Positions 3,562 to 51,344 of a DNA stretch of 64,000 nucleotides are shown here, in pieces. A program made the translations under genes and the position numbers. The stretch is taken from the NCBI GenBank assembly GCA_973895155.1, contig OZ316895.1, positions 16,658,170-16,722,169 on the forward strand, in the 5' to 3' direction. The DNA is from Marsupella aquatica (Eukaryota; Plantae; Marchantiophyta). Under the pieces are notes generated by a model. That model saw only the letters and a program-made list of their open reading frames with translations, ran no database searches and had not been told where the DNA came from. The stretch's first letter is position 1, and each line of letters begins with the position of its first letter.

Positions 3562-3925
3562 TTTGTGTTTACATTGTACAGCTTTTAACTACATTGTTAC
3601 TAAATATGTCCCAATTCATAATACTACCATTGTTTTTATTATGTATAAATATGCTATGTTTTTGTATTTGGTTACATTATTGAACTTGTGGTCAATGTCA
3701 CTAATAATGTTTGTTGCCCCAGGCCTCCTCCTTCAATTGAAGCTTTGTGTTTACATTGTACAGCTTTTAACTACATTGTTACTAAATATGTCCCAATTCA
3801 TAATACTACCATTGTTTTTATTATGTATAAATATGCCGTGTTTTTGTATTTGGTTACATTATTGAACTTGTGGTCAATGTCACTAATAATGTTTGTTGCC
3901 CCAGGCCTCCTCCTTCAATTGAAGC
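3562..3925 (+). repeat. Near-perfect direct tandem duplication, 2 x 182 bp
   Basis: tttgtgtttacattgtacagc...cttcaattgaagc occurs at 3562-3743 and again at 3744-3925. Only about 2 substitutions seen (gctatg vs gccgtg). Confidence 0.95.
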
Positions 3926-16770: not shown

Positions 16771-17311
16771 GGGTTTTTTTTTGGGGAGGGGGGGGGGGGG
16801 AAGGGGGGAAGCGACAAAGCACAAAATCAACCAGCGGGGGAAGAAAAAGACAAGCCTGAGAGGCCAGAGCACATGCCAACAACCCCGGGGGCAAGGTCAC
16901 CAAAACTCCGCAACAAAGGCAATACAGCAAATGGCCCCCCATGCACAAACTAAATGACCTTGGTCAGTGAGTGAACTGAGATCAACCAGCTGATCACAGA
17001 AATGAAGTGAATCCAGTAACTAATCCTATTAATAAGAGTAGTGTGCTGTCCCTCCAGATCTGGGGGTATCTAGTATAAGTAGTCCTAGAATGCCAAAAAT
17101 TGTGAAGATTGTCAAAAGGACCATGCTCCTCCAAACTAAACTTGTGGTCTAGTACTGTAGTTTGTTTTGCTGCCTGCCATCAGGCTCACACTCAGGCATC
17201 TCAAGACTAGAACCGTATCTGTAAGTCTCATAACAGGTAAGAAAATGCTGACAAATTCTAGGACTGGACTTATTCTAGGACTGGACAAATTCTAGGTGGA
17301 TTATGTGGTGT

Positions 17312-17534
17312 AGGGTATAAATTGCATACACATGGTATGTATACTTGAATATGGCTTAACGCGGGAGTGCCACAGGTGCGAATGAAGGTTGACATATGTA
17401 GGAGGAGGCTAGGGACAGGGTTGCAGGGTATAAATTGCATACACATGGTATGTATAGTTGAATGTGGCTTAACGCGGGAGTGCCACAGGTGGGAATGAAG
17501 GTTGACATATGTAGGAGGAGGCTAGGGACAGGGT
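17312..17534 (+). repeat. Direct tandem duplication, period 113 bp
   Basis: agggtataaattgcatacacatgg...ggctagggacagggt starts at 17312 and again at 17425, with few substitutions. Confidence 0.9.
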
Positions 17535-23865: not shown

Positions 23866-24172
23866 TAATGGAGGCTGTAGACATCTAGAGGTTGAACTCA
23901 TGGGTCATGTTCACTGTAGTTCGGCTTGAGTGGTGTGATTTGTGTGCTCCTCTCTTGTAATGGAGGCTGTAGACATCTAGTGGTTGAAGTCATGGGTCAT
24001 GTTCACTGTAGTTCGGCTTGAGTAGTGTGGTTTGTGTGCTCCTCTCTTGTCACTTTTTGAACTTGCAATTAAGTGTAATGAGGAGTGTTTGTGTGTGAGT
24101 AGTGTGGTTTGTGTGCTCCTCTCTTGTCACTTTTTGAACTTGCAATTAAGTGTAATGAGGAGTGTTTGTGTG
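23866..24172 (+). repeat. Two overlapping tandem duplications (~92-bp and ~77-bp units)
   Basis: taatggaggctgtagacatctag...ctcctctcttg x2, then gagtagtgtggtttgtgtgctcc...gagtgtttgtgtg x2. Confidence 0.85.
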
Positions 24173-24192
24173 CTCTTCTGGTGGGAAACAAT

Positions 24193-26019
24193 AGGGCATC
24201 TCAAAGCCCGGCCATTAGAGAAAATTACGGATTTGTGATATATCCCTTTGTGGTATATCCCATAACTCAAGTTAGGGGACCTAGTTATAGAATTTAAAAA
24301 GTGGGGGGAGGTAACATTGACTTGCCCCATAAGGCAGGAGTTACGGCCTCACCTGTCTCATAGCATATATCATTTTTTCCTCAATTCTTGATCAGTCGCT
24401 GCCTCAAATGCAGCAGCGAACATCACGTCAGGAGCAAATCCCATGAGCCTTCAGTCGCGGCTTTCCAGAATTCCGGAGTCCTAAATTTTCAGATTTCCTT
24501 CTAAAGTTGCAGGAAAGTTACAGGTTAAATGTTGAGTCACGGGCTTTCCTTACAGTAGTCAAAGATTGACTCCCACAACTTTTACGAGAGTTCCCATAAT
24601 ACTTGAGTTATGGGAGGGCCTTATCTTGTTAAGGCCAAACTTTGAGACCCTAATGAATTAGGCAAGGAGAAAACACTACTAAAAGGTGTCAAATGAAACA
24701 CAAGTTTAAAAAAGGGTGAGTGTCTTGGGTTAGGCGCTTCTGTGTCATATTTGAACTTGCAAATAAATGAAATGAAGGGGTCTGTGTGCTCTTCTGTTTT
24801 GCCTTGAAAACCGAAAGTAGGCCCGTCCAACAGGCATCCTCTGGAGCATGCTATTTATTTAGGGTAACCACAAGGGGACAATACCCCGGGATCCAACAGG
24901 GACCCAGACCAGGAGGGAGAGAGGGCTGAACCAGGGCCCCAAGCGGACCAGCTAGGGGCTCAGGAGAATCCAGGACTCTCACCACTACACCCCACCTCAC
25001 ACACACACCCTCCACACCCCTTGCATGTGAGAGGGGATTGAAACTGGGACCTCTTGGTTCTAGGCTAATCCCCTGGCCCAACTGACCATAGCCAGGTGGT
25101 AGGCAATAAATGAGTAGGGGGAAGGAAAAGCACTACAAAAACAACTTAAAGGTGTAATATGAAACACAAGATATAGGATAAAATTTTAAATTACAAGGAG
25201 GTTTACTTCCAATTTCACATATATGAATTACAAGGGGAAATAACAATTGATTATTATAGATCAATAAATGAATGTTATACATGAACCTGGACCTTAATAA
25301 TGTTCTCCTATGAAGTGCTTTCTGGTGAATTGCTTTTAGTTTGCAGGTGTGGGGGGTCTCTTGGTGAGACTTGCAGGCTTTTTGGCGCTTTGGTCCTTGG
25401 TTATTTGTGCAGTTTTCTCCCTTTATTGGGTCTATTGCCTTAGTTTGGGGATCTTGTCCCTGGGTGTGGGGCTTGGGCAATGTGTTATATACTATGATAA
25501 GGTAATGGTAACTTTGTCAAAATCCCATCCCAATGATAGGGGAACGGTAGCTTTGTCAAGATCCAATTCCATTATATCTTTGGAGCTTTGGCAGTGTGTT
25601 ATATATACCTTGAGCCTGAATGCTCATTCTTTGAATAAGTGGGACCCCCTAATAGGGCATGTTACAACACTGCCATAAACTAGGTCTTACGGCTGAATTT
25701 TATTGGACGTACCATACATACGAGGCACACATTTAGGTTGCCTGTAACAGTTTTCTCCCGGCCATAAAAGTTATGGTTTTAACTCAGTTTTCTCCTGGCA
25801 ATAAAAGTCTGTTATGTCCTTTGGCTTTAACTCAATGACCGTCATGTTTTGACTTGCCTAATAGGTGTGTCAAAGCACAGCTATAACAGGACATACAATA
25901 TTGTTATGGTCAGGATAAAATCACTATGAGCTACCAAAATATGTACCCCATAAAAATCATACATACAAAACAATAAAACTGTGAAACACTCTGGTAAGGG
26001 GAGAACTTTGACACGCCCT
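24193..26019. mobile_element. Non-autonomous Pangu/PHIS-like element(s) with AAT target duplication
   Basis: AAT|AGGGCATCTCAAAG at 24193 and CTTTGACACGCCCT|AAT ending 26019 form a 12/14 inverted match similar to the TIRs at 43130/48795. An internal junction TTTGACTTGCCT-AAT-AGGTGTGTCAAAG lies at about 25848-25875. Confidence 0.65.
24853..25098 (-). mobile_element. tRNA-derived SINE-like repeat (copy 1)
   Basis: The minus strand begins with a tRNA-like head (tggtcagttgg...cctagaaccaagaggtcccagtttcaatcccc, box A/B-like), then a GT-rich body and an A-rich end. It is homologous to 49376-49611. Confidence 0.65.
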
Positions 26020-27305
26020 AATGGTTCCATACACATCTCAGGTCCCATCCTCAGACTATCCTCCCACACTGCAAAATACCGTGGGCTCTGGGGCGTGGGC
26101 CACCGTACACTGCAAAATTACCGTGGACACTTGGCCTCACAAAACCGAACTCCGCCGCTTATCAGTGTTTGACAAAATTCAAAAGTTCGCAGACTGCTCA
26201 ACGGCTCTCTCCCCCCTCTCTCTCTGTCTCTCTCTCGTCCCGCTCTTCCCCACTTCGTCACGAAGTTACTCCCTAGGACCAGAGGCGCTCGATGCGATTG
26301 CCCCTTGACGATGATTGTTGCTTCATGCTGCGTTTCTCCGTCGGCAGAATGATGATGATGATGCTGTGCTTCTCCTTGGGCGGTGATTGATCCACTTTTC
26401 GCTTCTTATTCGGCCGTGATTGCTTCTTGCTGTGCTTCTCGTTCGGCAGCTTTCTCCTCTCCTCTCAGAGCTAAGCGCGGAGCTTTCGTTTGGAGGGGTT
26501 TCCACTGCCTCGGGGTGGCGCGGAGAGTGACAATGGAGAAGAACGGATCCAGGAGTTCGCCGTCTTCATCGACATCCGTCGGCTAGTCGGCTGGTTAAAG
26601 TACGAAATCTATCTTCGTCCTCGCTCGGGTGCATTCTACTTGGTAGACGACGTCCTGACCTGTTTTCGTGGTGGTTGTTGAGAGCATTAGATGGAAAGGA
26701 AGACAAACAGGGATCCGACGAGCATTAGGAGGTGCGTACTGCATGTGAAGTGCATGGTGGATCATATTAGTGGATGTAGGAGGGAGACAGGATGAGCTCC
26801 GAGGAAAGGGAGCTGGACAAACTGTCCGTACTGAGGAGAGATCATTATACTCGCGGTTTCCTTCTGCAGTGCTTTGTTGATGATCAGAGACGGCGATGAG
26901 GAGGATTTGGGTACGGAGAGGGTGGATCACTCACTTGCAGGGCTGAGAAGCTTGATGAGAGGCTCAAACTCTGTTGGAATTTGGCTTTACACGACAATAA
27001 CAAGCACATTCTGACTCTGAGTCGTTTCGCAGGTGATGGTCAAAACAGAGAGATATGAAATGTCCCAAAGTATACAGATCGCACCATTGGGTGGGCGGAT
27101 GAGCTGGGAAGGAATTGCCGTTGCACAGGTGCAGGAGAAATGAGAGTCCTGCAATGCTCATGATTTGCAGCCGGGACAAGATTCTCAGTCAGGTGTGGGA
27201 GGGCGTTGGAAAGGAGTCGAGGTTTCGGGGGTTCTGGTTTAGGCAATAACTCTGATTTGAACAGGCAGAGGAAGGGACGAGCTGACTGAAGCTGGAGTAG
27301 CCAAG

Positions 27306-30300: not shown

Positions 30301-32843
30301 ACAAACCTTTGTGGTCTGAAAGTAGGTCGAGGATTACGGTCTGATTCATCTTAGTTTGAAATATTGTCCATATAAACCTAACATACAAATGGACATCTGG
30401 TATGTTCGTCAGGGAACCCAAGCTGCGACCCAGTGCAGCCGAGCTCTTGAAGGTACGAACTGATTCTTTTGTTGTCCTTCTCATACAATGACATCACCTT
30501 TGCTCAAGCTATTTTGATTTAGAATCAACTCACCAACACCGTGTGTCCCTTTGCACCACAGCACCCATTTGTGACTGAGCGCATCCCAGATGGACCTGAT
30601 GGCAACAGAACCGTACAGCAATCCTCCGCAGATCGAAACTCGGTAGGCATGTTACACATTTGCCAAGTCAGTCCTTTCTTTGAGTTTGAACATTCTGAGT
30701 TTATCCTAACAATTGCGTCGCTGGTAGGTACGAGGGAGTGATTTGGCTTCAACCGTCGGCAAGAGTAATTGCAACACCTTGTGAGTTGTCTTCCCTGTTG
30801 GACTTAGAAGCATGGGATCTTCCTCGTCTCAGCCTTGCATGATTTCTTTCGCGTATTTATCTTTTCTAGATGTTGCGTTTATAAAGATTCGTATCGTTAG
30901 GACATCTGCGACTTGGTAGACGAACTAAAAATAAGTTGTCATTTTACTTCTTGCAGGCGTAATCCGTCCTTCAAGGCTGGCCAATTCTCTTGGGCACGGA
31001 GGGGGCCATTGACCATGAACGGAAGTCCGAGCTTAAAGCCTTCGGGAGAACTTCAACCTCGAGATAATGGGCGACAAGACACGTCGTTCAGAGAGGACTC
31101 GAACTGCTCAGTTAGACTTGATTCGATTCGGAACGACAGCCTGGGCGGCCCAGTGGGACTTAATTCAGTTGTACATGATCATCAGAACTGTTCAGTTAGA
31201 CTTGATTCAGTTCGCAATGATTACGAGAACTGTTCAGTGAGACTTGATTCACCAAATTGTTCAGTGCGACTCGATTCTATTAGAAGTGACTATCCAAGAA
31301 CTTCATTGCGTTTCGATTCAGTGAGAAACGGTAACGCCAATTGTTCAGTTAGACTTGATTCTGTGAGAAGCGACTACCTGACGGGTGCCGGAATACCATC
31401 CTTGAGAGAGGTGCAAACGCCCCCCTTTTAAGTGCTCTGTAATGACTGGTTGGCATGTAGCTGGATAATCAGGACGTCATCTGCTGTTCCCATTCTTCAG
31501 TCTGCCCTACTAACTGAGACCCTTTTGTTAAACTGTTTCAAGCAGAGTTTTAATCCGATCTCTGAGCCGTCTTTCGAAAATGGAAACACTTGGGACGATG
31601 CCAGAAGGGGCCCGGACCTGACCCTCAGAGCGGGTGACAAAAGCAATACAGCTGGAGCTTTGGAGGACGAGAGAGGAGGCGAAAGCTTGCAAGACGATGA
31701 TGATGTCACAGAATCCAAAATAAGGGCCTTTTTGGATGAAAAGGTAGTGTACTTCAAAGATGATGTACTGTCACGCTTGCAAATGGGACGAATTAGATAG
31801 ATCGTGCCGTCGGCACTACTCACGTTTTCGCTTTCGGGTTAGTGGGTCTTCGCTTTTTGGGTTAGAGGGATTTAAGTGTCGGTTGAATGTTCGAAGACAG
31901 GGGTTAGCGTAAGGATAGTGGTAAGGGTTTAGGGTCGTCAATCAGGTGTGTAAGCTATCATAGTTTCTTGGGATTTGAATCTGAGCGTAGTACTCCTGAC
32001 CGTGCTGAATTTTACAGGCTCTGGAGCTAAAACGGTTACAAACCCCACTGTATGAGGAGCTTTATAATATTTGGAATACCGCAAACGAAAACGGGCCATC
32101 AGAAAGCTTTATTGCACCCTTGAGTCCTTCACCTGCCAAGCTTCAAGCAGCAATAAGCAGTCGATCACCAAGCAAAGCCAACAGTGTGAGTGGGCGCTCC
32201 GTGGGCATGCGGAGCAGTCGGGACAGTGAAATGAGCATAGGTTCTGGCAGCCCAGGTGGCGCTGGGTTTCCTAGTGGCAATTGCTCTCCTCTCCTTGAGA
32301 TCCCGTCACCAAAGCTGAATGAGTGGAAAGGACTCCTACATGATGCCCAAGCTCAACACATGCTCCCACCTCCAAGCCCCGGGTACGTCTATGCATCCCT
32401 TCCAAATCTTCCAAGGAGACACTGATGAACTAGACAATGCAAAGAATTTGTATGGTATGAATATGAACCGATGTCTAGCTCGACTAATTGTACGTTGCAT
32501 TGGGAATGTAGCCTGAATTCGGAACGCCAGAAATTGTGGAAAGAAGAACTGCAGCAAGAGCTCGAAATGAAGAGAGGTACAAGAGATTTCATTTGGATTT
32601 AGTCGATCATGGAAGTGTTTTCAATCTTTTTTTGAATCTGTTGTATTTGCCATATGTACATTAAAGATGTAGTCTGCAACTGACAGGTGTTCGTCTTGAA
32701 TGTGCTGTGTTTCAGAGGAAAAGAGGAAGCTCACACGAACCGCTAGCACTCTAATTAACACTACCCAATCGCCCAATAAAGACAAATCTCTGCAAAGATA
32801 TGGCAGCCGTCTTGTCAGCTCCACTCCTCCCACACCTAAGTAG
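27306..32843 (+). CDS. MAP kinase kinase kinase, NPK1/ANP-like, multi-exon
   Basis: Exons encode [87 protein letters not shown] and [17 protein letters not shown]. The regulatory tail has [35 protein letters not shown] and [20 protein letters not shown]; stop at 32841-32843. An additional upstream coding exon cannot be excluded. Confidence 0.95.
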
Positions 32844-34339: not shown

Positions 34340-34680
34340 GTTCTCACCTCTATTCATGTTCAAAGAATTCAAAGAATAGAACGGGTGGCACACCAGTAGT
34401 TGGGCTAGTGTAATTATCATGTTTATTTATGTGGCTCACCTGTTTTCATGTGCAATGAAGTTTAGAACGGGTAGCCCACCGGTAGTTGGGCTAGTGTAGT
34501 TATCAAGTCTATTTAGGAGGCTCACCTCTATTCATGTATTCATGTTGTTCAAAGAAGGGGTAGCCCACAGGAAGTTGGTCTAGTGTAGTTATCAAGTATT
34601 ATGTGGCTCTCACCCCTATTCATGTATTCATGTTCAAAGAAGGGGGGGTGGTTGGTCTAGTGTAGTTATCACATATTTAT
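34340..34680 (+). repeat. Four degenerate ~90-bp tandem units, each ending in ...ctagtgtaRttatca
   Basis: Units contain ctcacct..ttcatg...gggtagcccac...gttgg(g/t)ctagtgtagttatca near 34400, 34490, 34580 and 34660. Confidence 0.75.
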
Positions 34681-35375
34681 TTACATTCTGTCTAAGTGCA
34701 GGATCCGGGGATAACACCCCAAGCCTGCAGTTATCCACTTTATGCACTTCATCATAAGTGCATGTTGCACTTCTCCATATGTGTCTGTTACACTTTCCAA
34801 TAAGTGCCTATGAAATCACTAATGTACTTCCACAAATGTCTGGTCAGGTCATATACATAGACTTCTCATACCCAGAATATTCATAGTGCATGATTGAACT
34901 TAATAAGTGCACTTATCAATAAATGTTTCTAACATATGAGTTGCAGTCATTGATTAATGCATCTGTACTCTATCTGTACTCTTACAGACCTAAAATGCCC
35001 TTATGTATTTGTACTTTAGTGATGGACAACCTGCATTTTAAGAAGGGTGCATTTTTTGGTGCATTTACAAAAGAATTTGCTGTATTATTGAGGGATTACA
35101 CGACCACCCTGCAGTTACCCACAGAAGACCACCCTGCAACCCTGCAGTCACCCACGGAATGCACTTACACACGGTAGACTGTATGTGGCTAGTCTAGTTA
35201 TCACATGATGATGAGAATGTTGAAGTTGAGGAAACATCCGCTAAGGGCTGGCTAGATGGCTAGTCCCAACTTTGAATTGTCATCATGCATAAGTGAAGGG
35301 TTCATCGTTGATGAGTACAGTAGCTGCATTTCGGAACGCCACATTATGTTCCATTTGCATTATCTCTTCTTACTG

Positions 35376-36115
35376 TACTTTCTATGGACGAGCTCGTTCG
35401 GGAAGTTCGTCGCTAGCTCAGTATGAAGGAGATCTGCGAATGGGCTGCCTTAACAGTGCCTCGATCATTCTGTGCGACTACCCTACTTTCTATCGACGAG
35501 CTCGTAAGGGAAGTTCGTCGCTAGCTCAGTATGAACGAGATCTGCGAATGGGCTGCCTTAACACTGCCTCGATCATTCTGTGCGACTACCCGAGTAGGAC
35601 TATCCGCTGTGTATCGGGAGCACCGGAGCACCGGAGCAGCCATGAGCCTTGGGCCCCGGACGTGCAATCACTCCAGACTCAGCTGACCTCTTCCCAAGCT
35701 CGCAGCAACAGCGTGTTTGGAATCCCGTAACACACAAGAAGGTATTCAAAGCCAGTGCTGAACCGCACCACAAAGTCAGTGCTACACCACCTGCAACAAC
35801 CTCGACCCGAAGCACAAGTAGATACATCGTGCTCGTTCCGACTTCTCCCAAACGACTGTGTGGACTGTCATTGGTAGCAGCTAGCGACAGCATCATTTGC
35901 AACGACGACTCTCTTACGCCAGCGGACAGTCCTGCGAAGGGTAGTCTAGTCTCTCTACAGCTGTAGATGCAAGAGCTCTTCAGCATCATGCAGTCCTTAC
36001 TACTTTTCCTTACTACTTAATTGGACGCGACGGACAAACTTATCAACCTTCCCGACGAGCTCATAAGGGCAGTTCTTCACCTAAGTATTAAAGGGATCGT
36101 GCGAATGGGGCTGCC
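35376..36115 (+). pseudogene. F-box gene remnants, including a 2 x 108-bp tandem duplication
   Basis: 36021 onward reads LDATDKLINLPDELIRAVLHLSIKGIVRMG (F-box-like LPDEL motif). 35376-35483 and 35484-35591 are duplicated related fragments (DELVREVRR*LSM...LRMGCLN) with stops and frameshifts. Confidence 0.6.
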
Positions 36116-36787: not shown

Positions 36788-38880
36788 CAATCCTCCGCAG
36801 ATCGAAATTAACTCGGTAATCATGTTACTCATTCCAAGTCAGTCCTTGCTTTGAGTTTTGAACCTTCTGATCTTATGCTAATATTGCGTCAATGTGTACA
36901 GGTACGAGGGAGTGATTTGGCTTCAACTGTCCTCAAGAGTACTTGCAACACCTTGTGAGATGTCTTCCCTGTTGGACTTAGAAGCATGGGATCTTCCTCG
37001 TCTAAGCCTTCATGATTTCTTTCCCGTACATATCTTTTCTAGATTTTGCGTCTATAAAGATTCATATCTTTAGGACATCTGCGACTTGTTAAATATACTA
37101 GAAATTTATATGTCTGTCACGTACTTTTTGCAGGCGTAATCCGTCCTCCAAAGCTGGCTAATACTCTTGGGCAAGGACGGGGCCATTGATCATGACCATG
37201 AACTTACAGGATTCCGAGCACAATTAAAGCCTTCGGGACAACTTCAAAGCCGAGATAATGGGCGACAGGCAGCAACCACGTCGTTCAGAGAAGACTCGAA
37301 CGGCTCGCTTAGACTTGATTTCGATTCGTAACGACAGCCTGAGCGGCCCAGTGGGACTTGATTCAGTTGTACATGGCCATCAGAACTGTAAAGTTAGACA
37401 TATATTTCAGTTCGCAATGATTACGAGAACTGTTCAGTGAGACTTGATTCACCAAATGGTTCACTGCGACTCGATTCCATTAAAAGTCCGTGATTATTCG
37501 AGAAGTTCATTGCATTTCGATATATTCGGTGAGAAATGGTAACGCAATTGTTCAGTTAAACTTGATTCTGTGAGGAGCGACTACCTGATCGACGAGTGCC
37601 GGAATGCCATCCTTGAGAGAGGTGCAAACAATGCCACCCTTAAGTGCTGTGTAATGACTGGTTGGCATGTACGTAGCTGCATAATGAGACGTCATCTATT
37701 GTCCACATTATTTAAGTCGTGTCTACTTACTGCATGATCGAGACCCTTTTGTTAAACCGTTTCAAGCAGAGTTTTAATCCGATCTCTGAGCCGTCTTTCG
37801 AAAAGGGAAATACCTGGGACGATGCCAGAAGGGGCCTGAACCTGATCTTCAGAGCGGGTGACAAAAGCAATACAGCTGGAGCTTTGGAGGACGAGAGAGG
37901 AGGAGAAAGCTTTCTAGACGACGATGATGTCAGAGAGTCCAAATAAGGCCCTCTTGGATGAAAAGGTAGTGTACTGCAACGATGATGTATTGCCAGATTT
38001 TATAATGGGACGAATGAGATAGATCGTGCCATCAGCACTATTCTATCTGTTTGCGCTTTCTCAGGTTAGAGGGGTCTCATTTCAGTCCGAGGGATTTCAG
38101 TGTCGACTGACCGTTCCATGCGAGGGTTAGCGCGCGTGTGGAATGTGGTAAAGTAGGTAGATCGATGAGGTCTGAGGGTAGTTCTCCTGACCATGCTGAA
38201 CTGTTCAGTGGCCTCTAGAGTTAAAGCAGTTACAAACCCCACTGTATAAAGAGCTTTATAATACTAGACCGCAAACGAAAACGGGCCATCAGAAAGCTTT
38301 ATCGCACCCTTGAGTCACCTGCTAAACTTCAAGCAGCAATAGGCAGTCTTTCACCAACCAACAACAGCCATGCAAGAGTGTGAGTGGGCGCTGCGTGGGC
38401 ATGCGCGCGGAGCAGTCGGGACAGTGAAATGAGCATAGGTTCTGCAGCCCAGGTGGCCTTGGGTTAATTTCCTAGTGGCAATTGCTCCTTGAGATCCAGT
38501 CACCAAAGCTGAATGAGTGGAAAGGACTGTCGTCCATATGATGCTCAAGCGCAACACATGCTCCCACCTCCTGGCCCTGGGTACGTCTATCCATCCCTAT
38601 ATGATATCTTCCAAATCTCCCAAGGAGACACTGATCGATTAGACAACGCAAAGAGTTTCTATGCTACGATCATGGTTCCATAGCTAGCTCGACTAATTGC
38701 ACGTTGCATTGGGAATGTAGCTTCAACTCCGAACGCCAGAAATTGTGGAAAGAACTTCCGAGAGAGCTTGAAATGAAGAGATCGCGAGGTGCAAGAGATT
38801 TCATTTGTATTTTGTCGGTCATCGATCTTGAAAGTTTACATGCAAGTGTTTGCAATCGATCTTTGTTTCAATTGGGTATC
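36788..38880 (+). pseudogene. Unprocessed partial duplicate of the 3' (regulatory) half of the NPK1-like MAPKKK
   Basis: Colinear with about 30620-32650, including introns (caatcctccgcagatcgaaa..., [11 protein letters not shown]..., cgccagaaattgtggaaagaa). It has many frameshifts and no kinase domain. Confidence 0.95.
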
Positions 38881-40353: not shown

Positions 40354-43300
40354 TATGAAGGAGTCGTGTCTTAATTGTACCGTCCAGTCACGAGCATATT
40401 AACCATTTTTAGTGGTCGAACGAAAACTACTACCAGCGAATGCACTCTGAAAGTGCGATTCAAACTGCATCCAAGTGTTGAAAATCAACAATGTGTTCTC
40501 ACTTCAAATCTATATTTCGCCCGACGCAAATCAGAGAGCACCTACCTTAATTACTAGCCCCCTCTGGAGTCTGAGCCCCCTGCACACGGTACGCTTGCCA
40601 ATCTTGTTTTTCCAAATATCCATGGAGGCCTCAAAATCTCTCCAAATCAACAGACTGACCGTAAGAATACCGTCAACTTTGCAGGAGATCGTCCATGCAG
40701 GAGACACCACAAGTCCAGGCGCCTTTCAAATTGATCGAAACGTAGAGGTAAAATACTTCGGAAGTCTAATTCTAACCCCGATTCTAACTGCTTCTCATAG
40801 ACTCACCACTTTAAGATCTTCGTTTGCCTTCCAAGTCGTCTTTAGTTTGCTCTTTGAATTTGCATCAGATTGCTAAGCTCAACATATGTGTTATCCTCTA
40901 CGTGGAGAAATCAACCCCCCTTATGCCAATCTTCTACAGGCCCAATAGGTTGAATCCCACAAGAAATTGTTACTAACACTAACTTTGTATATATATATTC
41001 AGCATACTACACTAAATGTGAATGATTCATTTATGAAAATCAGCTTAAACTATTTGTGGTAGGAAGAGATTGATCCCAAAAATGTTCCACGTCGTACTAA
41101 ACCATGAATATGGTCAAGTTTAAGTCACACCATTTTGAATATGGAAAGTGTTACTGAAAGCAGGAATTGTGGACAATAAATAACATGGACAAAGAATGCA
41201 TTACATCAAGCCAGCCCAAGTCAGCCACTACATTCACAAATTTTTTTACTATAATAAAATATTTAGTTGTCACAGGAATCATTGATTTTAGTATTATGGT
41301 AGTATGTTCCATACTTAGTGTTATTTGAGCTACTTAATGTCAACAATACTGCTTGAAAATTTTCTTATATCTATAAAGATCACTCCTTCAAGAGGCAATA
41401 CGTGTCTCCACCTATCAATTATTTATATTGAGAATAATTCCCCAAAGACAAAGAAGCCAGGATGTGTGCCATATATTGACAGATACCTTGGAGGGACAAT
41501 GCAACCCAGATGGACTGTGTTCAAACATTTCTTTGAACTTAAATAGTATCTTTCCTTTGTAAAACTAGTCAAACTTTTGGGACTAAAGTTGCTAGGCTCA
41601 TCTGAGTTCAGATTATACACATTGTGGTCCATCCAAGGATTCATTTCTGCACATCCTAATCTACTTCAAAATAACTCACAACAGAACAGATCTACACAAC
41701 CAACAGTCACTGACTTTCATTCCTCCCGGCATTCCTCTAACATGTAAAATATTGCAAAGGACAAAAGGGCTTATACCAGAGACATGATCCAAAGGGCAAG
41801 AAACCCAATAAAGGGGGCAAAACCACAGGAAAATTGGGAAAGAGCCCAAAAGCCCAAGGAAGAATCCCTAACAACAGCCAAAGAACTAGCAATAAGAGCC
41901 TTTCTAAAACCTGGTAATGTTTTGGAATAAACAGCATAAGAGGATCACAAAGAAAATTTTGACCAGAAACCCTAAAACCAATCACCTGGGCCCCATTGAA
42001 GGATAAGGAAAGCCCAACACCCCCTCTAGCGAGGGCAAGCAGTATGGAGTGATAAAGTAAGTCGTCACTTGGGAATCTCCCCAAAACAAAAAATTCCAGG
42101 AAAGAATGGAGATTCTTCGGACCAGGAATCATAAAGTGAGTTACAAGTGGACAGTAGTACTACTCTAGTGGTCTGTTTCCCAAGTAGGTCAGGATAGGAT
42201 TCCTCCTGAGGTGGGGCCCTATTTAGTGTCCATGATGATAACCATTTTTTTTATTGGACACGGGGTGGCCAGAATATCGCACTCATTGGGCCTAGGGAGT
42301 TCCAGGATGGATTCTGGGTCTTGTCTAATGGACCACCAGGCCAACTTGTAACTATGACTGTAGATCTCAAAGATAATTAACTAATGTGTTAAATGTTTCC
42401 TTTACCCATCTTCAACCACAGATTGTCCCAAAGTGTAGGTGTGGGAAAGGGCTGCTGTGTGTTCTCATGGACGTAGCGCTGACTAAGGTGAACTCCTATC
42501 TCTTGGTGTCAATGTGTGTATGCTTGCTGATTGTTTTCGTGGTTGTTTCGTGATGGTTTTCCCAATAGGATGTTATATCTGGTTAGTATAATCAAATTTA
42601 ACCCAACCCAGATACAATTTGATGGTTAGCCTGACAACTAAATTAAAACTGAAGGTAAATTAGTAATTTCTACCATTCTTTGTGATAGAATCGTGGAATA
42701 AAACCGTATTGATATATCTCAACCATGATGTGTTAAGACCTTTTTAGAGCCAATTCTCTCAAAATGAAGGACCACCGATTGGAACTGCAGAAGCAGGTTC
42801 TTGTCCTGTTCGCAGCGCTAAATAATGAGATGTGCACTTTTATTATTAGTAGACCCAACAGCCCAAGAAGATCCGCCCCTACAGATCGCGGCACATTGTC
42901 CTAGCCAATCGTAATCCAGCCCTTCAGCCACAATTGGCGTTTGGTTGTCGGGACTGCCAAACTGGCTGTCATCTCACAATAACTCTCACAATGACTCTCC
43001 TATCTTCACGGGCTCCTCCTTTCCGTTCAAGCCGGCAGCTGCTATGCCAAACCGACGACAACTGTGACCGTCTGTCATCTCAGCACAAGTGAGAAATGGA
43101 GTTAAGGAGGTAATACGGTAGTAGTAATTAGGGCGTCTCAGACCTATGAACACGCAAGTTAAGGGTAGTTGTTAACCCCGCAGGTAACGACTATCCCGTA
43201 ACTCAAATGGTATGCCCACAACGTGCTCGTTAACTTTTGGCCGCGGGAATAGTCCATTGCCCGTGGCCGTTTACGTGAATAGTAGAGTGTGGCCACGCCA

Positions 43301-43521
43301 ACCTTATCCCGACACCGATTTGAACCATACCTCGCGACAGTCCACCATACCTCGCGACAGTCGGCAGGAGGAGAGGAGAGCAGACCGTTTACGTGTCGGA
43401 GCGCGAGCACAATTTGGAAGGGAGCAGCGCGAACACCATTTGGACAGTCGGCAGTTGGCAGGAGGCGCGCTAGCACAATTTGGGGTTTATGGTTGAAATT
43501 GAAGGTCGACATTGCTGCTGA

Positions 43522-44722
43522 ATGACGTCGAGGTAAAGCAGTCATTTCTTCGTACGTGAAGTCTTCTTGACCTCATCGCAAATAGGATTGTGAAGGTGGG
43601 CAGTGCACATACGATTTACAGCACGATTGTCCATAGTGAGCATCGTGGAGCACGGATTGTCCATTGCAGCTGGTCGTCGACGTTGGTGCAGAGTCGCACC
43701 TGGGAGTCGTTGCTGCGTAGCAGAGTTGCTTCTGGCCTCGGCGTTGGACAAGCTGAAGTAGTGGGGCCTGCACAAAGTCTTTTCGACCTGGTAGCAATGA
43801 ATGTACGAATAGTGTGGAGGTGGAGTTTGCAAGTCAGCTTTGGATCTCGGAATCGGATCCGGAAGCAAGATCAGCCTCTGCAATTGTGATTTGATATTCA
43901 CTGCTACCGTGACAAAAATTGAGTGAGTAGTCTTTCATCATCCCACTACAATTCTATTTACACAATTTTTGAAATGAGAATGAGGCAACAATTTCATGTA
44001 TGTTTTCGTACATTTGCAGGGCAGAGGATCCATTTTGTCAGGATGGTGCCATACACATCGTTAGCTGAAGTCGAAGATTGTAGGGTGAATGGACATTCAA
44101 TTGTTCAAGGCCCTGCATTAGCTTACGTAGGCAACTTCGTTGCTGCAAATCCTTACCCTCGTAAATTTTTGTACATGTCCTGCCTAGCACTGATGCCAAC
44201 AGGACGACTGTGTGGGAAGTCATTAGAGTTTGGTCAGAATTGCGAGCATTCATCCTTGCCTGGAAAACCTAAATTCAGATTTCAGCTGGTTTTCTTTGAT
44301 GCTGTTTACGGAGGGGTTCCCCCTATCTGTGCTAAAATATGGGATGCAGGAGGTGTCTTCTTCGATTGCTCTCCATCTGAGTTTTTGAGTTGTTCAGAAT
44401 CTGAGCAGCTTGCCTATTAACTCAAGTATCACATGTGGTTGAGGTTCTCTTCAGAATCGTTGATCATGAAATCCATGTGAAGAGGATTACCTTTGTGGAT
44501 GCCACACCCAGAGTGCCCAAGCCACTCCCTCTGCATTTAGCTAGGAGTCAAAGACCAAGTGAACATGTTCAACATGCTGGCCAATGTAGTCCTGGCGAAA
44601 GTAGTTTCAGGCCCTCAGCTGAAAATGTCAACCCAAAACAGAGGCCAAATTTTTCTGGAAAAGCCATGGCTAAACTTATTAGAAGGCTGCAGGATGAGCT
44701 CAATCTAGATGAAGAAAGCTGA
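43522..44722 (+). CDS. Putative third spliced gene inside the transposon, unknown product
   Basis: ATGACGTCGAG|gtaaag (43522-43532) splices in phase to tttacag|C ACG ATT GTC (43622). Further open frames lie at 44020-44420 and about 44409-44722, ending ...MAKLIRRLQDELNLDEES*. The middle junctions are not cleanly resolved. Confidence 0.35.
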
Positions 44723-44887
44723 TTTATTCTTTTACCGGTCCTATCCTGAAAGAATAGCATGTATGCTCCATTGCTAAATATAATCACTTGTTGGTGTACG
44801 TCTTGTTCGACTCAATTTGATTTCTTGTATACTTGCATTGTTCAGTTTCCTCACTGCATCATGTTTATTGCAAATCTAGGGTTCACC

Positions 44888-46405
44888 ATGCCACGTGTTT
44901 CAGACAGACAGAGGGTGTTGAGCGAAGTGAAGGAGGAACTCTACCTGTCCATTCTGATGGAAAGCTCAAGTATTGATAGTGTTGAGTCCATTAGCAACTC
45001 AACCTCTTCAACAATGGACCTCTGTAGCGATGCACAGCTTATTGTCAGTCAATCAGACCTCGAATATGAATCTGATAGTGATAGTGGGGTTGGAGGTGAC
45101 CCATTTGATTGTGTGCCAAAGCCTGCTGAAATCATGGAATTGTATTTTGTCATGGACAATACTCGGTATTTTGTGGATAAGCCTATGACTGCTAAGTCCA
45201 GGGACTTTGCTGAGAATTTTTTTGAAAATCTCCCACATAAGTTGTTCAGGCAAATGACACGCATGGACAAAGATTCTTTCTTTACACTAGTGAGTATGAT
45301 TGAATCACACCAGGTCTTTATGAATGATTCTCCTTACGAGCAGGCTCCAGTTTGCTTGCAGTTGGCAGTCACCTTGGACAGGCTTGGCCATGATGGCAAT
45401 GGGGCTTGCTTGAATCATATGATTCCCACTTGGGGTGTTAGTAATGGCTCGTTGTGCAATTTCATTGCACGATGCTTCACGGCTTTGGAGGATGCTTTGG
45501 TTGTACATTTGCAGTGGCCAGATGAAGCAGAACGAGCACGAATATCAGATGAGTTTGCACACAAAGGATTTCCCGGGTGTGTTGGCCTCATCGATGGCAC
45601 ACTTATTCCACTCTCTCAACGCCCAAAGGATTCGGGAGAATGTTATTTCGACACAAAGAGCAGATACTCAATCAATGCTCAAGTTATTTGTGATGATAAA
45701 CACAAGATCTTGTACCTGTATACTGGTATGTACACTGCCTATCTTTTGCAATCTGGTTTGTATTTACATGAGCAAAGTGACAATTGCATATTAATACGTA
45801 CCCAAAATCTGTCTCTTGATTGATGTAGTGGTTGCTGGTGATCAGGAATGCCTGGTTCAGTGTCTGATCTCACTTTCTTGAAAAGAAGCAAGCTATGGAG
45901 AAGATGCAGTGAGAATGAACAGAACTTGTTTCAGCAGGGGCAATACTTGTTGGGCGATTATGGGTATCAAGCATCCGAGTATTTTGTTGCTGCCTTTAAG
46001 AAATATGACACATCTGTGGATAAGGAGGATTTCAATTACTGTGTGGCAAAAGCTAGAGTTACAAACGAGCATTGCATAGGTGTTTTAAAGTCTCGTTGGT
46101 TTTCTCTCAAAGAAATCAGAATTCAATTGAAAACCACCAAGGAACACTTGTGGATGGTGAGGTGGATAGGCATTTGTGCACGGTTGCACAACTATGTGCT
46201 TAGCAGGAATGATATATGGAGTGAGGAGGATGAAGTGATTATACTTGAAGGGTCTGAGGTTGCTGAAGAAGAAGGGCCTCAACAACAGACCTTCAATCGC
46301 AGACGTCCAGCCCCTAATCCAAGTGCTCGACTTCAGGCTGTCATGGCAACTGCCTTGGCATTTCATAGACAGCCAAGGGGTTGTCTGTGGTCTGGTGCTG
46401 CATAG
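44888..46405 (+). CDS. Harbinger-type DDE transposase (HARBI1/DDE_Tnp_4-like), 2 exons, ~465 aa
   Basis: Exons 44888-45725 and 45846-46405 join in frame (YT G|GA MPGSVSD). Motifs: FRQMTRMDKDSF, QLAVTLDRLG (HTH region), GFPGCVGLIDGTLIP, YSINAQVICD, YLLGDYGY, FNYCVAKARVTNEHCIGVLKSRW, CARLHNY. Confidence 0.93.
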
Positions 46406-46823
46406 GATTTCAGTTTGACTTACCATGTACACTTGTGTTCAACATTTGAACACGTTATAATAAAGTGTTGGTTTTCTATATAAAAAGTTCATGGAATTCT
46501 CTCTTGTCATCATTGATGTAGCATCTTATGTTTGAAAACGAGTCATGAGGATATCTGTCCGAAAGCAAATGAGGTAAGTTGATTCAGACGGTAAGAGACT
46601 AGAATTACAGAATATAGATCGGAGCAAATCATTGAGTTTCATAACAAATGAAGTCAATTTCCTTCAATTATACATTTTAGGCAGATGTATGTTTGCACAA
46701 AGCTACGGTTACAAGTGGCACAACAAACCTTTGAATGTTGCTACAAAAGTTCTAAACGTCACCAATCCCTAAAAGTAAACATCTGCACACCTAAGCACTC
46801 ATCTCCCGCTGCATGCGAGTACA

Positions 46824-48200
46824 CTAATCTTCAACAAGAGCCATGAGAGCTTTAATCTGTTCATCAGTTTTGTTACTTCTGCATAACTCAATCAACATCT
46901 GAGACCTTCTCTCTGCTCTAGACATCTGCCATTGGTGGTAGCGATCTTGGCAGGCCTTTTTCTCAGCATTAGCAGCACTTGCATTCTCCAACTGCAATTG
47001 ATGCTTCCGCATTAACCTATCTCGCTTTGCTGCTTCTTGAGACGAAGAAATTCGAGCTTGCTTCTTTTCGTCAAGCTCAACCATCTTCCACTTCTCCCGA
47101 GTTTGGAGGAGCTCCTTTTTGTAGTCAGCCTTCTGCAACAGCCTCTCAGCATAAATTTGTGCAACATTGGGCTTCGGAGGTGTAGGCTGCTTATCGTCAC
47201 CTGTCTTTGCACGTGTCTTCTTAGGTGGCTGGTTCTCCTTGTTAGCCATTCCTGCACCTGCTTGCCTGGGAGTGGGTCGATTTCCCACAGGTGTGACAGG
47301 TGGTGTTGTTGTGTGTGCTGGAATTCTCCCAAAAGAACCACTAAAATTGTCCCTGGATGGAGCATCGGGAGAATTTTGCCCATTCATAGGGGCCTGTGGA
47401 TTGTGAGCTCTTGAGGGAAAATTCGTCGCTGAATCATGGGCAAGGTGTTCTGTGGAAATGCCAATGAGGTCGTCCTCCCAGAATTCAGGTGAATTGAATT
47501 CTACTCCATCCTCGACACCTGCCGGTCCTTCTACATTGAATAAAACATAACTATGTGTGAGCAATATAATTATGATTGAATCAGGCTATTTCAATCGAAA
47601 AAAACACCATAGTAATTGCGAAACTACCATAGACATCGTACCAGTGAGGATGATTGCGGGCGAGTGAGGAACAGCTGCAGCATCTGGCGGGTTAGATCCA
47701 TCTTCATGTGGATCAAAACTTGTGAATTCGTCCTCGTCTATCCCAAAATCTCCAGTACCTCGAGGTGCTACATTAGGCCGGCTTCCGAACAGAGCATGCA
47801 TCCTCTCGAAATGAGGACACATCCTCTCTAGCTTGTCCTCCAGAGTCAGGCCAGACACAAAATCATCCTCTGTTAGTCCACCCCCACTCGACATTTTCAA
47901 TTCACGAGCCTCTTTGTACTTGGCAACATACCTTGCAAATCTTTTGCTGAGATTAGGCCCGCTGATGTTCCTTGGGAAGTTATGTGCCTGCAAGACAACA
48001 AGCATTTGTTTGAAAACGGTAGCCCTGCTCATGGGACGGCCCTGGATTTTTGTCTTTCCGCCACCATGGATGAGGTTGAAGTTATCTGGATTCTCCAGCC
48101 AATCAACGATCAATCCGTAGTCAGAGTACTTCAGCCTGAATTTCTCCCCACCTCCAGCGCCACTCATGCCAGCACCGCTTGCAACATTCCTCGGAGCCAT
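46824..48200 (-). CDS. Transposon ORF2, Myb/SANT-like DNA-binding partner protein, 2 exons, ~421 aa
   Basis: Exons 48200-47642 and 47530-46824 join in frame at GT-AG sites. The N-terminal domain (LIVDWLENPDNFNLIHGGG...YVAKYKEARELKMSSGGGLT...LERMCPHFERMHALFGSRPNV) and the basic coiled-coil C-terminus fit PHIS second ORFs. Confidence 0.8.
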
Positions 48201-49375
48201 GTCTGTGTGGAGAAGTTTGCTAGTGACAGCAACTCTGGGGAGTTCAGAATCGACGTTGGTTGTCGCTGCACTGAGAGAAGTAGAACTGATTTTGGGGAGA
48301 TTAGTAGCAACTTCACTTGTCCATACACAGGGAGCGAAAGAATCAAGATTGGCTACCGACTGTCCTTTGAATTCACACTTCACCGTTTTTGGCAGAATGA
48401 GCAATGGGATGCCAATCTGCACAATCCTCTTATCAGTTCATCGCGCACCTGAGCCTCCTCTCCATGTTTGAATTTTGTGGGCGCCATGTTCAGGACCTCG
48501 TGATTCGATAAGTGGCATAAACGACACAACAATTATGCCCAGAATACGAATTCAAACGCCGACAATCTCTCGCGATCGAGCTATCGTGGACACTTTCCTG
48601 CCTTGCCATCGCGGACGTTTTGGAGCATGAGCGCCAGCTTTGAGTAGGCCGCTTCCCGCAACAGGTGCCTCATGGGACGGATCAAACCCCGGCTCCCCTC
48701 TCTGGTCCAAACCCGTTTAATGTGGCCGTAACTGGAGTTAAGGCCATATGTGGTTTCCCGAAACTTTTGGGACGGCCGCAGGTCTGAGATGCCCTATTAG
48801 GCTATTATTGGTGCAACAACAACAACCAAAACAAAATGGCGTCCAATGCAAAAATGCGACATTCCAAAACTAATACGAACAGTAGGCTGGAAAAATATGA
48901 GCATCATTTTGAGAAATGGAGAACAAATTAACTTTTAGACACTAAAGTCTGAAAACTTTATGTGATGTGAAATGCTGTTGAAATCGGCCTTGAACACATG
49001 TTTTGGATAGGTGTTGGAGAAATACCCAAAATAGTAGTTGGCTGGGAAAACTTTTAATGGCCACAGCCAACAGTATGGGAGCAAGTTTAAATAATTTCCC
49101 ATGTTCAAGGATTGAGAACCAAGTTACCACTATGTTAGGGGTTGGCCCACCTTTTCCTGGGATGTGCTACTCTTGAATGTTTGACCTCAGAAACAATGTT
49201 CACAAAAGAGGGGTGGGCTGGGCACAGCTTTGAAGTGTGGGATTTGAGGCAGCGCAAGTGAGGTGTAGTTGGGCCATGGCCAGTGACCAAAGCTATGACA
49301 CAACTCACAGTCCAGTCTGGCCTCATTGGCCTGGCTCAATGCAGAGATTGAAGGGCAAAGTCTGGAAAGCCTCTT

Positions 49376-49611
49376 CGCCTTGACCTCCCAATTGGCTAAG
49401 GGATTTGCTTAGAACCGAGAGGGGTCAGGTTCAATTCCCCCTGGTGTGTGTGGGTGGGATGGGTTTTGTGGGTAGTGGATTGGAGTTCTGATTATCTGCT
49501 CGGCCCTTGGTTGCCCACTTTGTGTCCCTAATATAATACTCTCTCCTTCCTGGTGCGGTTCCCTGTCGGATCCGTTGGGGCTCACCCTAGTTTGGGTTCC
49601 CTACAGAAAAA
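49376..49611 (+). mobile_element. tRNA-derived SINE-like repeat (copy 2)
   Basis: caattggctaaggga...cttagaaccgagaggggtcaGGTTCAATTCCcc (box B-like). The body (ctctctccttcctggt...ccctgtcggatcc) matches the reverse complement of 24853-25098 and ends in an A-run. Confidence 0.65.
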
Positions 49612-51344
49612 GTGTCACATTGGTGAATAAGCCTTGCCCAGCTGACATGTGGCAGCACCATAAATCCCTGAAGTCTTCTTCCTGGCAATTTAGGACATTT
49701 AAGGGCCGAAAATATAGTGGCCGGTTACATGTGACAGCCCTCAAAGTCTGAGCCTCTGAGGGGAACTTTTTGCTGACAGCCGCCAGCCCCACAGTCAAAG
49801 AGGGGAAGTAAAATTCCTCGAACCCTTCATCTGAACCGTCAGAAGCAAACGTTGACGGCTGTAGTTTCTTTCTCCGTTCACGATAAGAGAAATTGACCCT
49901 GGAGCCATTTTTTTAACGCGACTTGAATTTCCAGGTCAGCCCTTTGGACTCGCGCTCACTGGATTGGCTTAGCCAGTCTCATCCAGGTTACCATAATATT
50001 CTGGATAACGAGCAACGAACTCTCTCAGCTCCATCTCAACCGCCCATCGGAACTAGTTGACGGTTCAAAACGTTCCGAAATCTCCGGCACGCAGAAAAAT
50101 AATGTCTGACAACTACTGGCAAGGTACATTTGGTGTTTTGATGATTTGACCAGGTGGAATGTTTGTTTATATACAATTTCATTTCACATTACGAAACTAA
50201 TCATGTGTGAGGAATTTGATTAGTTTTAATCAATTTTTAAAGTATCACACTACAAGATTAGTCAGGGGTAAGGATTCTGATTAGCGTTAATCAAGGGTAC
50301 TAGAGTCCCGTGTGGAGTCAAGTTCGAAGCTCGAGAGAGCAAAAGCTATGGCGGACTTTGTGGAATGGAGGCTACCACGAGAGCGCGAGCGCACGAGGAG
50401 GAGATCTTGAGGACCGAGACCACGAGAGGATTCAACACGAGGGGCAAGCTGCCAGTTCGTTGGCGGACGAGAAATTGTATTTCTGTTCATGCACAGAACG
50501 GGCGGTGTGCCGCTGAGCGTAGAGCCCATGAGGAGCTGTTCGAAATGCGCAGCAAGCCCTTCCGGCTCGGGTGACTGGTCGATGCTGATGCGGATGTAGA
50601 AAACTAAATTAAAAATAATCGGGCGGAAAGTAGATACGGAGGTGTCGTGATGATGGCTCTGCAACTCCAGAGAAGCGGGGCGTGGAGCCACGACGCATTG
50701 CAAGTGGTGTTCAAGCCGCCCTGGAGGAGAAACACTGAGGTGTGCATTTTTTTCGATGGGGCTCAGTTTCTGTATTTCGACTCGCCGATTGGGTGCTTCT
50801 GAACTCGATGGAAACTTGGAATATTATGGCGTCTTCAACTCAAGTTTTCTGTGAAATTTCCTCTGAAATGACGATAACGAAAGGAGAAACTCTCGTACAA
50901 TTTGCTAGGCATGTGGAATCGTGTTGTCGGACACATGATCTCTGTTGTTTTCTTTCCCACAGTAGCATTGTCAGTAGCAGGTCAAGGCGAGTTGGGTCCT
51001 CCTCATCCGGCTCCCCTTTGTTCGCACGAGCACAATCTGAAGTGAATTTCCCGGAGCTTAATTTGGTCGGCTCCACGTCTTTGTCTGAGCACAAATGATT
51101 CCATTGAGCGTGAGGATTGCTACCTCCGTGCTATACAGTTTTAGATTACAGCCCACAAATGCTAACATAGTGAAAGAAAGAGTTGGATGGACCAATAGCT
51201 GGACCAAGTATGAGCTGCTAATGTGTGAGTTTTTATTCATGTTACTGACAAGGTTTGCAACGTGTGATATTCGGGGGCCATTCCTTGTGATGATGACAGC
51301 CTGCACATAAAAGACACCCGAGAGCCCAATCCACTGACAAAAGT

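Follow-up and report, generated by a model that had tools for sequence, protein, structure and literature searches.

A two-gene PHIS transposon at a duplicated ATT in the liverwort Marsupella aquatica

Described relatives and the ends of the element

Pangu elements, as defined by Han 2015, duplicate ANT on insertion, have terminal inverted repeats (TIRs) of 11-40 bp starting with AG or GG, and carry two ORFs, one for a DDE transposase that falls in a Pangu clade next to IS5 and a second without known motif, with Myb_DNA-bind_4 listed for 2 of 34 families in Table S3 (PMC4482050). None of the 15 Pangu genomes in that table is from a land plant, and our search of the literature for Pangu in bryophytes or land plants found no report. 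One of the families, Pangu-2_MLP (Repbase Harbinger-3_MLP), comes from Melampsora larici-populina and is 4,295 bp long, with ORFs of 438 and 451 aa (Table S3, PMC4482050). Passages of Han 2015 (PMC4482050) and Kojima 2025 (PMC12730594) equate core Pangu with Repbase Harbinger2, and a section of a further study describes ANT-type elements of Ectocarpus as having tail-to-tail genes (PMC12477816).

The window analysed here is a 64,000-nucleotide stretch of the M. aquatica assembly, and it contains a 5,666-bp PHIS element (43130..48795) with two tail-to-tail genes. In our judgement this is probably a full-length transposon that was inserted at ATT by a two-protein cut-and-paste mechanism, duplicating the site, and that is likely impaired in its present copy. 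The left TIR (43130..43145, plus strand) reads AGGGCGTCTCAGACCT and the right TIR (48780..48795) reads AGGGCATCTCAGACCT on the minus strand, each 16 bp long with an AG start; 15 of 16 letters are identical, the sole mismatch being at 48790 (CG vs CA). ATT stands on both flanks, at 43127..43129 and 48796..48798. These features, together with two open convergent genes and the DDE residues, had been listed in the earlier note and were all seen again, the splicing being modelled. A TIR pair with a matching 3-mer is weak evidence taken alone, as such pairs were found in 3 of 10 shuffled windows; with ends limited to [AG]GG[GC], the element was the only match in the window and an ANT-flanked pair occurred in 0 of 20 shuffles.

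With GGGC ends and a TWA target, the left flank reads TTA and the right TAT, so there is no duplication in that framing. The target, GTA-ATT-AGG, is neither the CWG of NuwaI nor the C|TNA|G of NuwaII, and the traits of ISL2EU and Spy are absent, the duplication being 3 bp rather than 2-bp AT or none, with no YqaJ match in the window. Since the flank beyond the site starts with AGG, like the element, a longer duplication with asymmetric ends is formally readable.

Strong evidence for insertion at ATT comes from the empty site. In each of the sequencing runs X3 and X4, a single 334-nt contig links 43132 to 48806, and the X3 contig reads ...GTAGTA ATT AGGC, which is the single-ATT empty allele that the earlier note had named as a check. 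The filled right junction is also present in X3 and X4 with 0 differences. The empty-site haplotype departs from the window at 26 of about 333 letters, and the presence/absence polymorphism therefore need not be recent; the insertion would postdate the divergence of two haplotypes that differ by about 8%.

The site preference extends to other elements. Two MITE-like relatives lie in the window, each with AAT on both flanks: one of 459 bp (24193..24651), whose left end equals the first 11 letters of the main right TIR, and one of 366 bp (25654..26019), whose ends start with AGGGC. An ANT pair of this kind arose in 1 of 50 shuffles. Among 80 related loci, 7 had a TIR score of at least 13 and a 3-bp duplication, and all 7 duplications were ANT (2 ATT, 3 AAT and, at one site, 2 ACT) with no TWA; 5 of 240 control loci had a TIR and a duplication, with mixed triplets. 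Two of the seven, L003 and L014, have a transposase of the element's type and, tail to tail with it, a gene homologous to the element's partner gene (E 2e-13 and 1e-21). AWT is duplicated by all three window elements and by both same-type loci with ends, and TWA by none. The ATT flanks, the single-ATT empty site, the AAT-flanked MITEs and the ANT loci thus make the element Pangu-type by target site.

The transposase and its partner

The transposase gene lies on the plus strand and matches Pfam DDE_Tnp_4 in both exons. Exon 1 (44888..45725, codons 1-279) holds catalytic D236 (45593-45595), and exon 2 (45846..46405) holds D317 (45956-45958) and E354 (46067-46069), so that the complete DDE triad is present in a protein of 465 aa free of internal stops. 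The modelled intron (45726..45845) is 120 nt long, GT-AG and in phase 1. The next open splice choice loses the conserved PGS motif, and proteins of Calypogeia and Riccia run uninterrupted across the intron position with YTGMPGS or similar. The intron sits after YT-G, whereas 6 of 15 metagenome loci tested have one in the RK-RYS motif. By eye, the catalytic block reads RYS.NAQVICD...TGMPGS..D. A sequence comparison with solved structures gave no relative of the transposase.

The second gene, on the minus strand, encodes a protein of 421 aa without internal stops under the splice model. Exon 1 (47642..48200) specifies a helical N-domain (about residues 20-140) with a predicted DNA-binding fold, and exon 2 (46824..47530) a low-complexity linker followed by a conserved charged helical C-terminus; the modelled intron between them (47531..47641) is 111 nt and GT-AG. 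Several alternative in-frame splice choices exist, and both modelled exons match the homologues P0031, from Calypogeia (61% identity), and P0032. A Pfam scan of the protein gave no family above cut-off, and a Foldseek search with its model gave nothing that reached E 0.001. The best fold matches were Sap1 (Z 7.8, rmsd 3.5, 96 aligned), Zeste (Z 6.7, rmsd 2.8, 71 aligned) and the GT-1 trihelix (Z 6.0, rmsd 4.4, 81 aligned), all with Z-scores under 8, and the homologous partner at L003 matches Myb_DNA-bind_4 at 26.8 bits against a cut-off of 27. The partner is thus likely a divergent Myb/SANT-trihelix DNA-binding protein, as predicted from the model, which would give the "motif-less" second ORF of Pangu elements a likely identity.

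How might the two proteins work together? A two-protein mechanism is expected from parts of the literature on canonical PIF/Harbinger elements (PMC2836001, PMC9710019). By analogy with Ping/Pong and Harbinger3_DR, the N-domain of the partner may bind the element ends and bring the transposase there, and the transposase would excise the element and insert it at ANT with a 3-nt stagger. Repair of the staggered site would create the duplication, excision would leave one ATT, and the same two proteins would move short AGGGC-ended elements. A candidate binding region for the partner is the CpG-rich left subterminal region (43146..43900, CpG o/e 1.03), where short repeats in direct orientation occupy 43324-43362 and 43398-43483 and a CCGTAAC lies at 43196.

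Affinities and origin

Of the traits that Han 2015 listed for Pangu, the element has an ANT duplication with an empty site, a TIR of suitable length and start, and two ORFs, one for a DDE transposase and one without motif. It thereby fits the published definition by target site, as the earlier note had proposed, and it adds land plants to the hosts of ANT-targeting PHIS elements. The earlier label "Pangu-like" holds for the ATT/ANT target site; the transposase lacks the core Pangu/Harbinger2 motif. With core Pangu the element shares the ANT duplication, a short TIR with an AG start and two genes, but PDG...GP..G..D, found in 11 of 14 Pangu rows of Fig. S3, is missing, and only 7 of 40 residues (by eye) are identical to Pangu-2_PInf. 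The nearest row of that figure is Pangu-2_MLP, which Han filed as Pangu and which was not among the sequences in our trees. It resembles the element in its AWT duplication, two ORFs and similar size, in the middle catalytic block, where 22 of 40 residues agree (Fig. S3, by eye), and in being the only row of 34 with NEH at the catalytic Glu, as in the element; it differs in its host, ours being a land plant, and in a TIR of 24 bp rather than 16 bp. ANT duplications occur with three distinct transposase types among the related loci, so a Pangu group defined by its target site may not correspond to a single clade.

It is very unlikely that the element is an ordinary canonical PIF/Harbinger transposon that merely happened to insert at a non-TWA site. 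Like PIF, Ping/Pong and Harbinger3_DR, it has a DDE_Tnp_4 transposase with RK..YS and GxPGS..D motifs, a likely Myb-like second gene and MITE derivatives, and core identity is 28-33% to canonical-type transposases vs 21-24% to those with the core Pangu motif. However, it duplicates ANT rather than TWA, as do the two MITE-like relatives in the window and the related loci with clear ends, and its partner falls below the Pfam Myb cut-offs. The window transposase groups with neither the three canonical-type rows nor the one Pong-like row, in trees with poorly resolved deep nodes.

From 278 input sequences, 140 covered the core, and 7 without a recognised first-Asp motif and 18 near-duplicates were removed; the careful trees held 43 and 48 hand-picked rows, with no published reference or IS5 rows included. 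Scans of viral and prokaryote contigs gave no transposase relative, and the tree therefore has no IS5 outgroup. The liverwort clade is supported at 100/100 and the window plus Calypogeia rows at 100/98, with identities to the window over the tree region of 53-71% for Calypogeia and 35-55% for Riccia; the oomycete and rust lineages lie beyond these. It is these relatives of the transposon, rather than host genes, that mark the host as a likely liverwort in the analysis. The nearest named relatives are DDE Tnp4 proteins of Calypogeia fissa, Riccia sorocarpa, Riccia fluitans and Phytophthora spp., labelled hypothetical, and it is likely that genes annotated "DDE Tnp4" in Riccia and Calypogeia belong to transposons of this kind. 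A tree that sets the lineage apart from core-Pangu-motif, canonical and Pong-like rows is not rejected (p-AU 0.4), and one with liverwort and Phytophthora rows as sisters is neither supported nor rejected (p-AU 0.36). A liverwort plus rust/mildew grouping was rejected (p-AU 0.025).

The earlier note saw a link to fungi, and both proteins do have fungal relatives: Basidiomycota partner-like clusters stand at rank 2-3, the rust and mildew transposases retrieved are 35-37% identical to that of the element, and the closest of Han's references comes from Melampsora. Yet grouping the window with rust and mildew rows, away from the liverwort rows, is rejected (p-AU 0.0005), and a direct fungal origin of the element is not supported. 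An X1 contig that spans the junction between host flank and element, with 0 differences, is a further point against contaminant fungal DNA. Recent transfer from a fungus, or contamination, is accordingly highly improbable, and we reject a recent fungal origin on the sequence comparisons; an ancient transfer into liverworts may have taken place. The best explanation is a lineage of the Pangu-2_MLP (Harbinger-3_MLP) type that has long been resident in liverworts. A broader reading, possible but rather doubtful, is that ANT targeting does not define a single clade and that the element belongs to an unnamed ANT lineage, with a canonical-type core and a divergent trihelix partner, common to liverworts, oomycetes, rusts and mildews; an ancient transfer, with some filamentous associate of plants as the donor, would have brought it into an ancestor of Riccia and Calypogeia, and competent copies would still be making MITEs and presence/absence differences in liverworts.

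Condition of the copy

The earlier note took the element to be young and potentially active, which the evidence supports weakly. It had overlooked T256 and Y318, two residues at conserved positions. At position 256 (45653-45655), Arg is present in 140 of 156 relatives (89.7%) and Thr in none, and Arg is present in 15 of 15 close relatives. R256T is private to the window copy; sibling copies in X1, X3 and X4 have the Arg codon. At 318, beside catalytic D317, Ser is found in 73 of 98 relatives and Tyr in 1. Both changes are real, since an X1 contig covering 45577-46025 shows 0 differences from the window. CpG o/e in the transposase gene is 0.37, vs 0.62-0.91 in five host exons.

We consider it unlikely, though worth weighing, that the copy is both young and competent as an autonomous element, with T256 and Y318 tolerated and both proteins still supplied. 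Its frames are open, its DDE triad, TIRs and duplication are well preserved, and haplotypes differ in its presence. In addition, the transposase agrees with its relatives at all 30 columns that at least 90% of them conserve, R256 lying just outside that threshold, and it departs from only 3 of the 124 positions conserved in the clade, where 15 relatives depart at 2-22. The open frames, intact triad and few departures indicate a copy that is not generally decayed. Against competence stand the private R256T, the CpG depletion, the divergence of the empty haplotype and the lack of any evident full-length near-identical sibling in X1, the best run, near-identical copies being what the earlier note had suggested looking for; related copies in the sequencing runs are several, at 83-95%. 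Because its transposase has lost a nearly invariant Arg, this is likely a worn copy and not an active one, and, judged from its sequence, it is likely impaired now despite its open frames. As a source for a tool, it is a poor candidate, and an Arg256 sibling would be preferable.

Depth of X1 contigs with zero differences is 15.5-18.5 inside the element, similar to the 14.2-17.6 in the flanks, and a 106-nt X1 contig of depth 31 points to another copy whose right end is nearly the same, contig depth being a poor measure of copy number; the analysis covered 57% of X2. Exceedingly unlikely is co-domestication of the two genes as host genes, for which pairs such as HARBI1/NAIF1 and ALP1/ALP2 are described in part of one source (PMC9710019). 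Both frames are open and have introns, but the TIRs and duplication are intact, the other haplotype lacks the element, and diverged related copies exist.

A 165-aa ORF at 43923-44420 has no Pfam match and was left out of the gene count, and Rfam and ARAGORN scans of the whole window gave no matches. The subterminal motif CCRTAAM has 27 matches in the window, 8 of them in the two MITEs and 3 in the terminal regions of the main element; it was picked post hoc and shows no enrichment across the window (27 observed vs 22 expected), and its presence at the ends of elements is a lead only. The window also contains a match to DUF688, which we take to be plant-specific.

Element architecture and the empty site

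The transposon at 43130-48795 is 5,666 bp long and is bounded by 16-bp terminal inverted repeats (TIRs) alike at 15 positions, with ATT flanking both sides. It carries two genes arranged tail to tail, a transposase gene (44888-46405; one 120-nt intron; 465 aa) with D236, D317 and E354 and with Pfam DDE_Tnp_4 in both exons, and a partner gene on the minus strand (48200-46824; one 111-nt intron; 421 aa), for which a Calypogeia protein and one further protein each match both exons. The ends and the two open, spliced, convergent genes are as an earlier note had described them. Since 3 of 10 shuffled windows also yielded a TIR pair flanked by identical 3-mers, the ends required independent proof.

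Four public sequencing runs (X1-X4) were compared with positions 41000-51000 and with the right end of the element. In run X1, from organism A, the sequence continues across both junctions between the element and its flanks, with 0 differences. The empty-site allele with a single ATT that the earlier note had proposed to seek was found in organism B, where one 334-nt contig in each of X3 and X4 connects 43132 to 48806; the X3 contig reads ...GTAGTA ATT AGGC. Against the window, this contig shows 26 mismatches in about 333 letters as well as gaps. The filled right junction is also present in X3 and X4, with 0 differences to the window and at a depth similar to that of the empty junction (76 against 80; 36 against 27.5), so organism B has two haplotypes, as in a hybrid, a polyploid or a mixed sample. 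Since the empty haplotype is about 8% diverged, the insertion postdates that split and need not be recent. The right flank starts with AGG, as does the element, so the junction position can shift by three letters; it is placed at ATT by end symmetry and by the other elements. Across 41000-51000, one haplotype in X3 and X4 is identical to the window and the other is several percent diverged at similar depth, and it is possible that organism B is an allopolyploid or hybrid.

Target-site preference and family placement

A second copy in all four runs aligns up to 48799 and then diverges into different sequence; judged by its right end, the one covered, it fits an ATT following the element. Two MITE-like elements (24193-24651 and 25654-26019) have ends related to those of the transposon and AAT on both flanks, and a comparable ANT pair of any kind arose in 1 of 50 shuffles. 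The same 1.8-kb patch (24190-26022) contains a third end (CCCCCT followed by AAT, 25645-25653) that adjoins one of the two back to back; ANT-type ends may be preferred places for new insertions. In a survey of 80 metagenome loci encoding a related transposase (39 were at least 2.5 kb long), 7 showed a clear TIR together with a duplication of 3 bp, and the duplication was ANT in all 7, as against 5 of 240 shuffled flanks with mixed triplets. Together with ATT at the transposon itself, this upholds the Pangu-type duplication claimed before. The seven loci comprise three transposase types: that of the transposon (L003 and L014; ATT and a homologous tail-to-tail partner in both), that with the core Pangu motif (L073 and L074, one site; ACT) and a third (L043, L045 and L049; AAT). 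The third type, which was matched to no named group, also includes L060-L063, L068 and L079 as decayed copies within longer contigs; AGAG ends and AAT are intact in L043, L045 and L049.

Han et al. 2015 (PMC4482050) define Pangu by ANT, by TIRs that are 11-40 bp long and start with AG or GG, and by a pair of ORFs of which the second is motif-less; every point is found in the transposon. Unlike 11 of the 14 Pangu rows in Fig. S3 of that paper, which have one motif in common, its transposase lacks this motif and fails the Harbinger2 motif test; in Kojima 2025 (PMC12730594), Pangu is equated with Harbinger2, and canonical Harbinger together with Nuwa is kept separate from it. Middle-block identities, counted by eye for 5 of the 34 Fig. 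S3 rows, are 22/40 to Pangu-2_MLP, 17/40 to NuwaII_TRub, 15/40 to NuwaI-4_DRer, 12/40 to Pangu_CGig and 7/40 to Pangu-2_PInf, and Pangu-2_MLP is the only one of the 34 rows to share NEH around the catalytic Glu. Over the core, the transposase is 28-33% identical to three rows of canonical type and 21-24% identical to three rows with the core Pangu motif. Transposase trees leave the deep nodes open (p-AU 0.4). The transposon thus behaves like a Pangu element, fits the target-site definition and belongs to the Pangu-2_MLP type; the trees give no placement in the Harbinger2 clade, whose motif it lacks.

Origin and the partner protein

The earlier note had raised a possible fungal origin. The nearest named transposase relatives are from Calypogeia fissa and Riccia; in a 48-row tree the transposase groups with the Calypogeia rows (100/98), within a clade of 11 rows (100/100) in which every named member is a liverwort, and outside this clade lies an unresolved group (94/90) including Phytophthora, rust and mildew rows. 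Grouping with rust and mildew apart from the liverworts was rejected (p-AU 0.0005), and with it a recent fungal transfer; grouping with Riccia apart from Calypogeia was also rejected (p-AU 0.021). No other land plant is named among the matches listed (150 of 3,116, most without a name). The lineage may have entered a liverwort ancestor by ancient transfer or may be an old inheritance with losses. Judged by these relatives, the host is likely a liverwort. No report of Pangu in bryophytes or other land plants was found in the open literature, nor did the liverwort and Marchantia titles surveyed mention this lineage; it may already be catalogued in Repbase or in subscription journals.

Ping/Pong and Harbinger3_DR, according to PMC2836001 and PMC9710019, need both proteins, the Myb-like one binding the ends and the transposase, and excise precisely as a rule. 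By analogy, the partner protein would bind the element ends and the transposase, with a similar division of labour. Its N-domain is helical in the predicted model (pLDDT mostly 70-90 across residues 20-140), and its top structural matches are the DNA-binding domains of Sap1, Zeste and GT-1, followed by Myb-type domains, all with Z < 8. The L003 partner homologue scores slightly below the Myb_DNA-bind_4 cut-off.

Competence of this copy and other repeats

The transposon had been thought young and potentially active, a view that residues 256 and 318, CpG depletion and read depth in X1 do not sustain. Position 256, Thr in this copy, is occupied by Arg in 140 of 156 relatives and by Thr in none of them, and the Arg codon occurs in other copies in X1, X3 and X4; at position 318, which adjoins the catalytic Asp and is Tyr in this copy, 73 of 98 relatives have Ser and 1 has Tyr. 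Both residues of this copy are borne out by an X1 contig. The CpG o/e values of the transposase gene (0.37) and the partner gene (0.52) lie below those of the element ends (0.84-1.03) and of five host exons (0.62-0.91), which may reflect long methylation. In X1, contigs that match the interior exactly are about as deep as the flanks, giving no sign of a near-identical full-length sibling in that run; the pieces listed from other copies are about 5-17% different. The frames are open, and the transposase departs at 3 of 124 clade-conserved positions, compared with 2-22 in relatives. Judged from its sequence, this copy is unlikely to be competent; the transposon is real, and this copy is probably not the active one. 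At 48719 the window has A and every X1 and X2 contig has C, a private change or assembly error.

Organism B carries a variant of the interior (43745-48689) whose depth is very high (X4, about 1,000-2,200 against 27-47; X3, about 3,500-27,000 against 45-80), with an about 2-3 fold difference between the samples after scaling. It ends before both TIRs, with an additional T behind 44917 and without 47274-48051. The strong amplification of a broken fragment that lacks the ends, and its sample-to-sample difference, suggest that it forms a tandem array, sits in an organelle or is carried by another element. A joint of 43286 to 48500 in X1, X3 and X4, skipping 5,213 nt with 27 letters on its short side, is possibly a 450-bp internal-deletion derivative. 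A dispersed repeat of very high depth, at 49394-49573 and about 24890-25080 (67% alike), contains GGTTCAATTCC, which we take to be a B-box-like word, and is possibly a SINE. A partial duplication (30726-32545 and 36900-38754; about 6.2 kb spacing, 84-95% alike, with internal 42-nt repeats) covers the 3' part of a putative kinase gene. Short tandem duplications of 77-182 nt (85-100% identity) lie at 3562-3925, 17309-17534, 23866-24172, 34372-34597 and 35371-35586.
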